The notes below the pieces were generated by a model. That model made no database searches. It was not told the origin of the DNA and was given only the letters and a program-made list of their open reading frames with translations. 64,000 nt of DNA from Candidatus Methanosuratincola mesotaenarum (GTDB taxonomy: Archaea; Thermoproteota; Methanomethylicia; Methanomethylicales; Methanomethylicaceae). The stretch covers positions 9,868-73,867 of the forward strand of contig JAULTC010000004.1 of assembly GCA_038801705.1 (NCBI GenBank), given 5' to 3'. Shown in pieces: positions 18,977-22,192 of the stretch. The position numbers were made by a program, and so were the translations under genes. Position 1 is the first letter of the stretch. Each line of letters begins with the position of its first letter.

Positions 18977-19171
18977 ACGGTACCCGTGAGAGAATCAAGC
19001 CCTGTTTTTTGGGCATTTTACTATTTTTGAAAAAATGAATATTTCTGCAACAGGATTTTGCATACGATGGTCGCATTAAATGGCTGTATTGATTTCGCTT
19101 GCATGCCACGGTTGGGGCATCTGCATCCACAATAAATATAGGTATGGTCAGGAGGGTTTATCACTCACTAA

Positions 19172-19250
19172 GCGGCCGTGGTCTAGTCCGGTCTAGGATA
19201 GAAGCTTCCCAAGCTTCGGATCCCGGGTTCAAATCCCGGCGGCCGCACCA
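19172..19250 (+). tRNA. tRNA-Gly(CCC), CCA encoded
   Basis: GCGGCCG/CGGCCGC acceptor stem, GAAGC-TT-CCC-AA-GCTTC anticodon arm, GGTTCAAATCC T-arm. Confidence 0.96.
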
Positions 19251-19350
19251 ACCTTTTTGCTCCATAGAAGGAAAAAAGCTTGACCAAAAACCTTTGCTTT
19301 TTAATCAATCACGAAACATGTACAGTACAGCCCAGGCTCCGTGTACGGTA
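19251..19350 (+). pseudogene. Remnant of the start of an SSV-type integrase C-fragment / att arm
   Basis: EGKKLDQKPLLFNQSRNMYSTAQAPCTV aligns without gaps (15/28 identical) to the in-frame leader of the integrase at 59207-59290. Confidence 0.65.
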
Positions 19351-19575
19351 CCGCCCATTAATCCGGCGCCCAGGGAATTTTTTCGCCAGCCTTTTTTCAT
19401 CTGGCCCATTAAAAGATCGCGAAAAAGGTTGCATGGTGGGCCCGCCCGGACTAAGAGACTTTTGGCGCAAAAGTTTCATCAAAAATGGCATCCCCTCCAT
19501 AATGTCAAGCAGGCACCTGACCCGCTCCGGGCATCTTTCACCAAATATGTTCAGTTTAAAAAAAGTGGAATGGAT

Positions 19576-20901
19576 TTAGCTAAACGAGAAGTGGGCCAGA
19601 TATTTTGTTGTGTCTTGACCGTCGTGCCAATAATACAGTGGACTTCCCGAATTCACAGTCACGCTAAGGTATGGAGGGGCACCATTAGTCTCGCCGGCCG
19701 CACGGTAAAGAGCGATACTAACGCCAACTCCGAATGTCAGTGTTCGAGTGCTAAACCCGAATGAAAAGTCTACAGAACTAAATTTCCATTGGTAGTTGTC
19801 TGCAGTGTCTGTGGTGAACCCTATTATGAAGGGGTTACTCGACCCGTTTGTCCAGGTTCCTGCATAGCCTGGATGGATAGTGCCGCAATTACTGCATGAG
19901 ATGGATGATCCGGTGGCCACGTCATTGAACGTAGTGGGTTTCATGAAGTAATAATACTGCTCAGTGTACGGGTTACCGATATCAGGTCCAAAGTACCATT
20001 CTTCGCAGGAATAAGTCGTTTGGACGAGCACTTCATACCGGTTGTTGCCCGATGATTCTGCATAGTCGCCGATCACTGATCGGGCAGGCAGTTTCCCGCA
20101 ACTCATCCAATTAGTGTCATATTCACAGGGCGGTATGCAGTAAATATTGTAAGTGATTGTCCGCTCATAGCTTTGGAAGTATAAGACGGTTCTGTCCGAA
20201 CCAGTGCCTACGGAATACCAGCGTACCGTCAAACCAGAAACGCTGTGCACTTCACCCGCTTTTAGCCATTCGGTATCATAAGCGACATTGCCCTCATCGG
20301 TGTAGCTACAAATTTTAGCCTTTACGGTAAGGTGGCTAAGTTAAGTATCATAAGCGACATTGCCCTCATCGGTGTAGCTACCCATCGCTTCATGCGGGCC
20401 GGGGTATCCTAAAGAATCGGTTGAATCAACGCTCACTGCTCTTACCAAGTCGATTGGAACATCTATTGCGCCATCGAGATCCAAGGCATCGAATGTCATT
20501 GCAATCCCTCCCTATATCAATCCTTCAGAGTCGGTGACATGGATGTATACCGAGGATGATTGATAGGCGTTTGATGCGGTTTCGTTGCTGTCCAGAGTGC
20601 ACAAATCAGCTGCTACAAGGTTGATTTCAAACTCAACTATCCCGGGCATACTGAGGTTCTTAATCAGGACCCTCGTTGAAGGGGTCGTGGACAAATCATG
20701 CACAAAAACGAAAAGCGCGCCTTCATACTCCTCGCCGTCCAGCAGTGGAATTAGGTTGATGCTTATTGTCGCCTTCTCTGTTGTGTCGATTTCTGGTGCG
20801 GTAGTACCACCTATGCCGATTGCGCCCATTGAACAGACAGTCAAAAAAAGCATTGCAATAACCGCAATAGAAATAGACTTTTTCTTTTGCATATGGGTCA
20901 C
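19576..20901 (-). pseudogene. Secreted/surface protein, interrupted in frame by TAG (20512-14) and by a 72-bp insertion containing TAA
   Basis: Signal peptide KKKSISIAVIAMLFLTVC; ORFs 20512-20901 and 19576-20250 are in the same frame and read continuously through the gap. Confidence 0.7.
20273..20381. repeat. Perfect 37-bp direct repeat x2 separated by a 35-bp unique spacer (CRISPR-like geometry)
   Basis: GTATCATAAGCGACATTGCCCTCATCGGTGTAGCTAC at 20273-20309 and 20345-20381. Confidence 0.9.
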
Positions 20902-21088
20902 CTCAAATAATACCTCAAATAATAAGTGATGTCGTTTATTCCGTCAACTGATATTTTAGGTTACACTAGACTAATTTTATGGTCTACTAAATTAGACTGG
21001 TAATCTTTTCGCCTTTCAAAATGCTCTTTTCACGAAAAAAATGGTCTATAAGTAAGGAATTAAATACTGTGAGATTGAGTAATTAGCC

Positions 21089-21937
21089 ATGCAGAACAAT
21101 GACCGCGGGGAGGAGTTGTCCACGGAGGCACTCTTCGACAGCCTTGGGCACCCGATAAGGGTAAAGATACTAGAAGCGCTGAATGGCACTCCACTCAGCT
21201 TTTCCGAGATAAAGAGGAAAGTGGGGATCGACAGCAGCGGTCACCTGACGTTCCACTTGGACAAGCTCAAGGGGCTCATAAAGATAAATACGGATGGCAA
21301 TTACGAGCTTGCGGACGATGGGAAGGAGGCACTGAGGCTTATCTCAGTATTTAATACTGGAGTGAAGGAGTGCTCCGAGCCCAAAAAAGACTGGAAACAG
21401 AACAGTAACGTAGTCTGGGCGGCCGCCCTGATAGCGATAGTGCTCATATCAGCTGTCTCAATAAATGGCATGTATGGAACATATTTGGCTCTTAGGAATG
21501 ACGAAGGAAAGGAACAGACGTGGAGCATTTTCTGGCGGAATGTCGATGATGCCCGGATCCATATCCTAAATTCTATGGCGGCGGTCTACGCTAACGATCT
21601 CTGCGCGGCAAGATACGAACTGGCAGTTGCGGAGGTCTACCTCGATCTAGTGATTTTCAAGACAGAAGGGCTTAATCAGCTGGGGCAGGATTGTAGAATA
21701 CTATGCGATGAGGGGATCCACTACATCTATTTGCTTAAGCCGACTCTAAGCACGATTAGGGAATCGATGGCCAACGGCAGCGTTACCGATGGGCAACTGG
21801 TATTCCTTGATAATTTGGCATCGGCGCTCAATTCTTTATTGAATAGCATGCAGCACGAAGAAGGCGGACCTTTCACTATAAATGACGTATATGCTATCAT
21901 CAACCAGTTCAAGGCTCTTGCGGAAACGGCTTGTTGA
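21089..21937 (+). CDS. ArsR-type winged-HTH regulator with TM helix and C-terminal (probably extracellular) domain
   Basis: LFDSLGHPIRVKILEAL..LSFSEIK...SGHLTFHLDKL; TM VVWAAALIAIVLISAVSI. Confidence 0.8.
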   Translation: MQNNDRGEELSTEALFDSLGHPIRVKILEALNGTPLSFSEIKRKVGIDSSGHLTFHLDKLKGLIKINTDGNYELADDGKEALRLISVFNTGVKECSEPKKDWKQNSNVVWAAALIAIVLISAVSINGMYGTYLALRNDEGKEQTWSIFWRNVDDARIHILNSMAAVYANDLCAARYELAVAEVYLDLVIFKTEGLNQLGQDCRILCDEGIHYIYLLKPTLSTIRESMANGSVTDGQLVFLDNLASALNSLLNSMQHEEGGPFTINDVYAIINQFKALAETAC

Positions 21938-22192
21938 CCATAAATCGCGCAAATTGAAGAATCCCGGCGGCCGCAATCGTGATCGCAACTTTCATGTGCC
22001 ATTCGTTAGGCTTTCCAGTGATTTCATAAGCTACATTTAAATATTGTGGCGCGCATTCTAATATGTTCTGAACATGGTTCTGGAACACTGATTGATGAAA
22101 TCGATGATGTTATCTGCCAGGACCGCAAGCGCCGAGTAGGGGCGCAATGAAATAAATTTCTATATTATAGAGGCGGGTTCATTTATATGCAT

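Follow-up and report, generated by a model that had tools for sequence, protein, structure and literature searches.

A probable off-target CRISPR spacer integration scar inside a gene of the archaeon Candidatus Methanosuratincola mesotaenarum

How does a protein-coding gene come to carry 37 bp of its own sequence twice, with 35 bp between the two copies that occur nowhere else in the genome? The locus that raises this question lies in a 64,000-nucleotide stretch of DNA (the window) from Candidatus Methanosuratincola mesotaenarum (Thermoproteota, Methanomethylicia; assembly GCA_038801705.1, contig JAULTC010000004.1), which is C7:9868-73867 of a 14-contig assembly of 1.457 Mb that is 93.27% complete; contigs are given here as C plus a number, C7 being the one that holds the window, relatives' genomes as G plus a number, and positions that carry no contig name are those of the window. 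We take the additional 72 bp, with a probability of about 0.9, to be the scar of a real, recent and population-variable off-target integration of a spacer of the kind found in CRISPR arrays. Such an integration inside a gene had been proposed in a preliminary description of the sequence, and the proposal gains support from what can be observed directly: the geometry of the unit, its match with the geometry of the host's own CRISPR array, 11 recurrences of the arrangement elsewhere in the genome, an empty site, two donors and a shared target motif.

The interrupted gene and its empty site

The 37-mer GTATCATAAGCGACATTGCCCTCATCGGTGTAGCTAC stands twice at 100% identity, at 20273-20309 and 20345-20381 (72 nt from start to start), exactly as had been described, and it is confined to these two sites in the 1.457-Mb genome; an exact 37-nt match at this spacing cannot be chance. 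Between the copies lie the 35 bp of 20310-20344, which have their single genomic occurrence here and a G+C content (GC) of 0.34 against about 0.53 for the genome. Positions 19600-21000 were compared with the Logan contigs of four public sequencing runs (X1-X4), X1 being the probable source run. The features of the locus are the following.

20268-20282, plus strand: target motif resembling a leader-repeat junction, attcg|GTATCATAAG (the bar marks the boundary), with 8 of 15 positions as in the right-end junction of the real array
20273-20309, plus strand: first copy of the duplicated 37-bp target, lying on the leader-like side as the new 'repeat' and as long as the host repeat
20310-20344, plus strand: 35-bp insert, the ectopic spacer, foreign to the genome, with a single genomic occurrence and an unrelated context in run X2
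20345-20381, plus strand: second copy of the duplicated 37-bp target; 20272 is followed straight by 20345 in contigs of runs X2 and X4
20341-20343, minus strand: TAA stop carried by the insert, in frame with the interrupted gene
19576-20901, minus strand: the interrupted gene, collinear with one 441-aa open reading frame (ORF) of G017; the N-terminal segment of its product is hydrophobic; in-frame TAG at 20512-20514

The state before the insertion is represented in run X2, which belongs to another study. A 1311-nt contig of this run (depth 43.9), differing at 3 bases, joins 20272 directly to 20345, and it is the empty site of a near-identical strain with exactly 72 bp skipped. A second contig, from run X4 (304 nt, depth 2.7, reaching no more than 26 nt beyond the joint on one side), skips exactly 20273-20344; runs X3 and X4 each cover 17 of the 30 bins of the compared stretch. 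The uninterrupted single-copy allele, for which the preliminary description had advised a search, is therefore present in related populations, as represented by these contigs of X2 and X4.

An artefact of assembly or scaffolding, which had been raised beforehand as an objection, is scarcely credible as an explanation of the unit. The assembly is made from short reads, with 77-nt overlaps at contig ends and gaps of 100 N, and two of the 12 units of this kind in the genome (see below) sit exactly at breaks. Against this, an independent assembly of run X1 with k=31 contains a 95-nt unitig that spans the two copies and the insert between them at a depth of 23.5, with flank unitigs at depths of 29 and 28.8 and the 37-nt repeat unitig at 50.7; moreover, an artefact would not recreate the geometry of the host's CRISPR array 12 times. 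The depths, as distinct from reads, fit a population with about 80% insertion alleles and about 20% empty sites (2 x 23.5 + 5.5 = 52.5).

The consequences for the gene are equally plain. One minus-strand frame, running from 20499 to 19576, encodes SYTDEGNVAYDT twice, and the sole stop between these two copies is the TAA at 20343-20341, inside the insert. Because 72 bp equal 24 codons the insert is in frame, and its excision in silico therefore restores the frame, giving an open frame of 287 codons in place of the 254 and 56 present as it stands; on both the stop and the restored frame the preliminary description proved correct. The closest homologue among relatives, the single 441-aa ORF of G017, is collinear with the gene (66% identity over the C-terminal part) and has a single linker at the place of the insertion, which falls in a poorly conserved linker just ahead of a conserved WLKAGEVHS block. 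Homologues of the gene occur in 7 of 30 relatives, and it has no family match in Pfam, PHROG or NCBIfam searches.

The gene carries a further in-frame stop, a TAG at 20512-20514 on the minus strand, whose counterpart in the aligned G017 protein is a serine and at which the X2 allele has no listed base difference. The genome encodes a tRNA-Pyl (CUA) at C14:267761-267830 and PylD at C14:265589-266377, so that this TAG is possibly read through; TAG also terminates 228 of the 905 long open frames of the genome. It may represent either pyrrolysine read-through or an older nonsense mutation, in which case the gene was possibly dead before the insertion. GC is 0.46-0.48 in the 3 kb around the gene (19000-22000) as compared with about 0.53 in the genome, and these low-GC surroundings possibly form a small island. 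At the 5' end of the gene, 20900-20923 hold two exact tandem copies of the 12-mer ACCTCAAATAAT, and a tRNA-Gly (CCC) gene lies at 19172-19250, just downstream of it.

Twelve units with the geometry of the host array

The genome contains a real CRISPR array at C2:358792-360149, composed of 19 repeats (each 37 nt) and 18 spacers (35-38 nt) with a period of 72-75. Its canonical repeat reads GTTTCAGTC...CATTGAAAC; the leftmost copy is degenerate in its left part, which fits a leader on the right, csm6-proximal side. The array adjoins csm6, two genes for repeat-associated mysterious proteins (RAMP), a small ORF with no Pfam match and HD-cas10, a neighbourhood that is a compact type III locus. A near-identical repeat is found in G014, a relative from the same family as the host; searched for in degenerate form, the canonical repeat had no match among metagenome contigs, and among genome contigs only two small contigs of G014 matched, with no intact cas1-linked copy of the array. 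The comparison with the host array that had been suggested for the window unit thus comes out in its favor: the duplication has the length of the host repeat (37 nt), and the insert of 35 nt falls within the range of the canonical spacers (35-38 nt, n=18), both as an integration scar should have them.

The same geometry recurs throughout the genome. A scan for exact direct repeats with a period of 45-130 and a minimum length of 20 nt returned 60, of which 15 were left after the exclusion of five repeat-rich regions (the array, three tandem coding-repeat blocks and one simple repeat), and 12 of these 15 have a period of 72-74. These 12 are the window unit and 11 further solitary ones, each of which has some 37 bp of ordinary sequence duplicated around a unique insert of about 35-37 bp. 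The duplications measure 37 nt in seven units and 38, 39, 39, 42 and 31 nt in the others, the 31-nt unit becoming 35/37 once mismatches are allowed; a looser scan added one degenerate candidate, C1:6029 (31/37, period 75), one end of which reads gcg|GTTGCA. As a control we used G004, a complete genome of the same genus (1.538 Mb, with two cas1 genes and two arrays whose repeats are 37 nt long), in which five solitary pairs were found, none of them with a period of 72-75. Two of the excluded coding blocks, C2:252774-253443 and C7:79168-79874 (the latter on the contig of the window, both outside the window), consist of tandem repeats of 57-66 nt rich in AAC, ACC and TCC codons.

Stop-to-stop frames and Pfam scans of ten flanking ORFs place most of the units in intergenic DNA, at the ends of genes or within unnamed ORFs, and the window unit is the only one that clearly splits a long frame mid-way. 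A second spacer is present in none of the 12, and the likeness of the unit repeats to the canonical one does not exceed about 8 nt at one end. The preliminary description had gone on to suggest that the event seeded a one-spacer array; this part is not supported: there is no sign of a working array, all 12 units are single-spacer, their repeats are unlike the canonical one and no Cas6 was found. Most likely, then, the 12 units are scars and not seeded arrays, the window unit being an inert scar.

For two other units, the assembly itself contains paralogues of the empty site, at C2:190885 and C3:116-156. The end of C2 (C2:460403-460679), which bears one ectopic unit, nearly duplicates C2:190845-191049, where the site is empty, with 97.6% identity over 165 nt followed by 100% over 77 nt; the two are related either as paralogues or as alternative haplotypes. 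For two units, a contig break follows at exactly 77 nt. Contig breaks were considered and dismissed as evidence of polymorphism, the break at C2:460531 being explained by the paralogous empty copy at C2:190885. A repeated element of about 150-350 nt, with 92-96% identity between copies, is present at C2:80024-80372 and at the starts of contigs C2, C3 and C7; the units C2:79898 and C2:80175 lie in or beside one of its copies, and the C3 copy has the empty site of C2:80175.

The constancy of these figures could be attributed to something other than CRISPR integration, namely, an undescribed insertion process, or a tiny mobile element, that always adds about 72 nt. Four of the units (duplication plus insert, 42+32, 39+33, 39+34 and 31+42) have a sum (72-74) that is steadier than its parts, as such a process would have it, and the assembly contains no integrase gene. 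A 37-nt stagger combined with chance identity between insert ends and flanks, however, yields the same constant sum, and the period is that of the genome's own array. The inserts, which range from 32 to 42 nt, are mutually different, have no common sequence or ends and are not enriched in hairpins, which therefore leaves no element to be recognized; we regard this process as very improbable. On the same grounds (length of 32-42 nt, all different, no shared ends), a casposon or transposon insertion was rejected. The window insert does fold better than its shuffles (z -1.98); a hairpin as a general feature of the inserts was discarded, with a mean z of -0.18 for the 12 ectopic spacers versus -0.75 for the 18 canonical ones (Mann-Whitney P 0.90).

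The sites themselves share a sequence feature. With the 12 empty sites oriented so as to match the array's right-hand end, ttacg|GTTTCAATGA, CG|GT stood at one boundary in six of them, compared with 0.6% of random positions read both ways (binomial P 4.5e-11), and the mean match to the 15-nt array-end junction was 7.25, as opposed to 5.36 (standard deviation 1.35) for random sites. Two units read cg|GTTTCAAT and cg|GTTGCAAT; the window unit reads tcg|GTATCA on the plus strand, to be set beside acg|GTTTCA in the array, and matches at 8 of 15 positions, CG|GT included. The far ends of the duplicated segments are unconserved, as a ruler predicts. In the available text of PMC6698737, an archaeal Cas1-Cas2 is described as recognizing sequence at one end in vitro and setting the other by a fixed distance. 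For the repeat-like target that had been postulated, the enrichment is strong in the 12 units as a set, and the window unit by itself has CG|GT in a match that 6.1% of random sites equal; its orientation has to be corrected, the leader-like side being on the plus strand (tcg|GTATCA) and not on the minus strand.

Origin of the inserts and of the integrase

Donor sequences were found for two units. Run X2 contains positions 20307-20346, that is, the 35-mer bordered by TAC and by GT, in a 1554-nt contig (depth 40) whose flanks are unlike the window; since the 35-mer is present in unrelated DNA, the insert was copied from other DNA and not from neighboring sequence, and the possibility, raised in advance, that template switching derived it from adjacent sequence is thereby ruled out. 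The 35-mer has no exact match in viral contigs or metagenome contigs, and a search of 61 additional genomes of the class that allowed up to 3 mismatches found none either; viral contigs likewise gave no exact match for four more spacers, of which one is canonical and three are ectopic. When all 30 spacers (18 canonical, 12 ectopic) were compared with the genome, one second full-length match appeared: the insert of the unit C14:180347-180458, which sits where a DUF996 gene has its 3' end, exactly reproduces C14:198584-198617, 18 kb away, with the identity running on for 38 nt, and is thus a self-derived spacer. The mean GC is about 0.44 for ectopic spacers and about 0.42 for canonical ones, as against about 0.53 for the genome.

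The flanks of the two donors deserve attention. The TAC and GT that border the donor of the window unit are the last three and the first two bases of the duplicated segment, and the donor of C14:180347 continues with CAGT (C14:198618-198621), as does its target. GT follows three of the four prespacer strand ends in the donor in these two events, and GT begins each repeat strand. This hints at a rule like that of a protospacer adjacent motif or at a trimming rule, and the integrase may cut prespacers and targets with the same specificity.

Several observations weigh against an origin of the units by CRISPR integration: (i) in both units for which a donor is known, its flanks agree with the ends of the target, a microhomology above chance expectation, as template switching predicts; (ii) one unit combines a 42-nt exact duplication with a 32-nt insert; (iii) the CG|GT motif was seen in the data before it was tested, the junction match of the window unit (8/15) is modest, being reached by 6.1% of random sites, and 3 of the 12 units (C2:45853, C14:296301 and C14:389274) have no junction-like motif; (iv) the evidence from all four runs is at the level of contigs; and (v) the integrase that we infer is absent from the assembly, in which Cas1 (PF01867), Cas2 (PF09827) and Cas6 (PF01881) have no family match and tblastn with ORFs from the cas1 loci of six relatives found no Cas1.

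The last point had been named in the preliminary description as one that would count against it, and no Cas1 was indeed found in the assembly; this is outweighed by the array, by a remnant of csa1 and by the cas1 genes of relatives. Cas1 is present in 4 of the 8 same-genus and 12 of the 18 same-family genomes searched, and in G018 the gene order is cas2-csa1-cas1-abiEi-abiEii. In the host, a fragment of 203 nt (C1:97-299) is 83% identical to the middle of the G018 csa1 gene, contains an in-frame stop and a frame change, and adjoins abiEi and abiEii, the locus C1:97-326 continuing into C12 by a 77-nt overlap. A Pfam search for Csa1 (PF06023) did not detect the fragment, whose identification comes from tblastn and blastn against G018 only; judged by this similarity, it is probably a relic of a lost cas2-csa1-cas1 adaptation module. 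Alternatively, cas1 and cas2 may be encoded in the 7% of the genome that the assembly does not contain, or by an element left unbinned. A weak tblastn match of the C terminus of a relative's Cas1 beside the csa1 remnant was rejected (E 0.006 in a 5.9-kb database, on a strand not expected from the G018 order). At C14:9317-9523, there is a weak match to a 312-aa ORF next to cas1 in G014 (40% over 70 aa, E 2.4e-7).

The most substantial competitor is microhomology-mediated template switching of the type known as fork stalling and template switching (FoSTeS) or microhomology-mediated break-induced replication (MMBIR), in which 37 nt would be copied, followed by a jump, the copying of about 35 nt and a jump back. 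Events of this type leave a duplication with a templated patch and short identities at the junctions, and the shared donor and target ends (TAC/GT and CAGT) as well as the copying of the C14:180347 insert from the same chromosome, 18 kb away, agree with this. On the other hand, FoSTeS/MMBIR has no fixed lengths, target motif or tie to the host CRISPR geometry; in the absence of a ruler it gives no reason for a period of 72-74 in 12 of 15 repeats, for 37 nt in seven units, for inserts of spacer length, for CG|GT in 6 of 12 targets or for the lack of such units in G004 from the same genus, and one of the four junctions (copy 1 to insert in C14:180347) shows no microhomology. We therefore consider template switching improbable.

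Under off-target spacer integration, the course of events at the window locus can be pictured as follows: (i) an integrase of the Cas1-Cas2 type would have taken a coding sequence resembling the leader-end junction (tcg|GTATCA for acg|GTTTCA) for a repeat; (ii) one 3' end of a 35-bp prespacer, derived from DNA that is not in the genome and is present in another sample, would have been joined at the tcg|GTATCA junction; (iii) the other end would have been joined 37 nt away on the opposite strand, by a fixed ruler equal to the repeat length; (iv) gap repair would have duplicated the 37-bp target; and (v) the in-frame insert would have brought in the TAA and truncated the gene. The enzyme, the order of the two joining steps, and the adaptation genes, either lost afterwards or carried off the assembled chromosome, are parts of the picture that we infer. 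A wider interpretation, which we put forward tentatively and consider doubtful, is that a recent genome-wide burst of CRISPR-integrase misfiring produced at least 12 fresh scars and was coupled to the decay of the adaptation module, with the GT rule in the donors as its second part. If this were true, off-target integration would be a mutational cost selecting for the loss of cas1-cas2, leaving a type III effector and a frozen array.

Significance and comparison with known systems

One small archaeal genome here offers a dozen events, a rare density for this kind of scar, and with them a real array to set beside them, donors, a target motif and an empty site. The mistakes of the integrase of an uncultured archaeon thus allow its sequence rule and its 37-nt ruler to be read. 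The window unit indicates that such mistakes break genes in nature, and the units as a group let one ask whether the cost of off-target integration drives the frequent loss of adaptation genes. For annotators, they are a caution that short 'repeat-spacer-repeat' units inside genes may be scars rather than arrays.

The best-known counterparts are the 'neo-CRISPR' loci that result from non-canonical integration by type I-E Cas1-Cas2 in E. coli (Nivala, Shipman and Church 2018), described in the accessible portions of three sources (10.1101/148544, PMC6698737, PMC7054753) for overproduced Cas1-Cas2; evidence for such events in other species is called circumstantial in the available text of 10.1101/148544. 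As far as these texts go, the units described here resemble neo-CRISPR loci in the duplication of repeat length around an insert of spacer length away from the array, in targets that resemble the array junction, and in inserts that may derive from the cell's own DNA. They differ in being natural and archaeal, with a 37-nt ruler, instead of the work of an overproduced enzyme, and in number and context, 12 or 13 being found in one 1.46-Mb genome, with empty sites and donors, in an assembly that holds neither cas1 nor cas2.

Off-target integration has also been obtained in vitro with the Cas1-Cas2 of Pyrococcus furiosus, for which the two joining sites depend on the sequence of the repeat and on relative spacing, according to the text available of PMC6698737. 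Within that description, the likeness is that joining sites are determined by sequence and spacing; the difference is that the P. furiosus work was done in vitro on plasmids, the repeat being about 30 nt long (as inferred from the mutant name G1A-C30T), whereas the events reported here are chromosomal, heritable and gene disrupting.

Isolated or orphan CRISPR arrays have been proposed as products of off-target acquisition (Shmakov et al. 2020, as cited in the accessible text of PMC13142298). The present units are like them, to the extent that the citing text describes them, in being repeat-spacer-repeat units far from cas genes for which off-target acquisition is the explanation. The repeats of orphan arrays are reportedly mostly like those of the cas-linked array; in contrast, the 'repeats' described here are ordinary host sequence with at most about 8 nt in common with the real repeat, and there is one spacer per unit.

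In the passages of the literature that were searched, no natural genome with a dozen such scars was encountered; natural candidates listed by Nivala et al. may bear on this. The phenomenon is of a kind already known, and the unit in the window is an unusually well-documented natural case of it.

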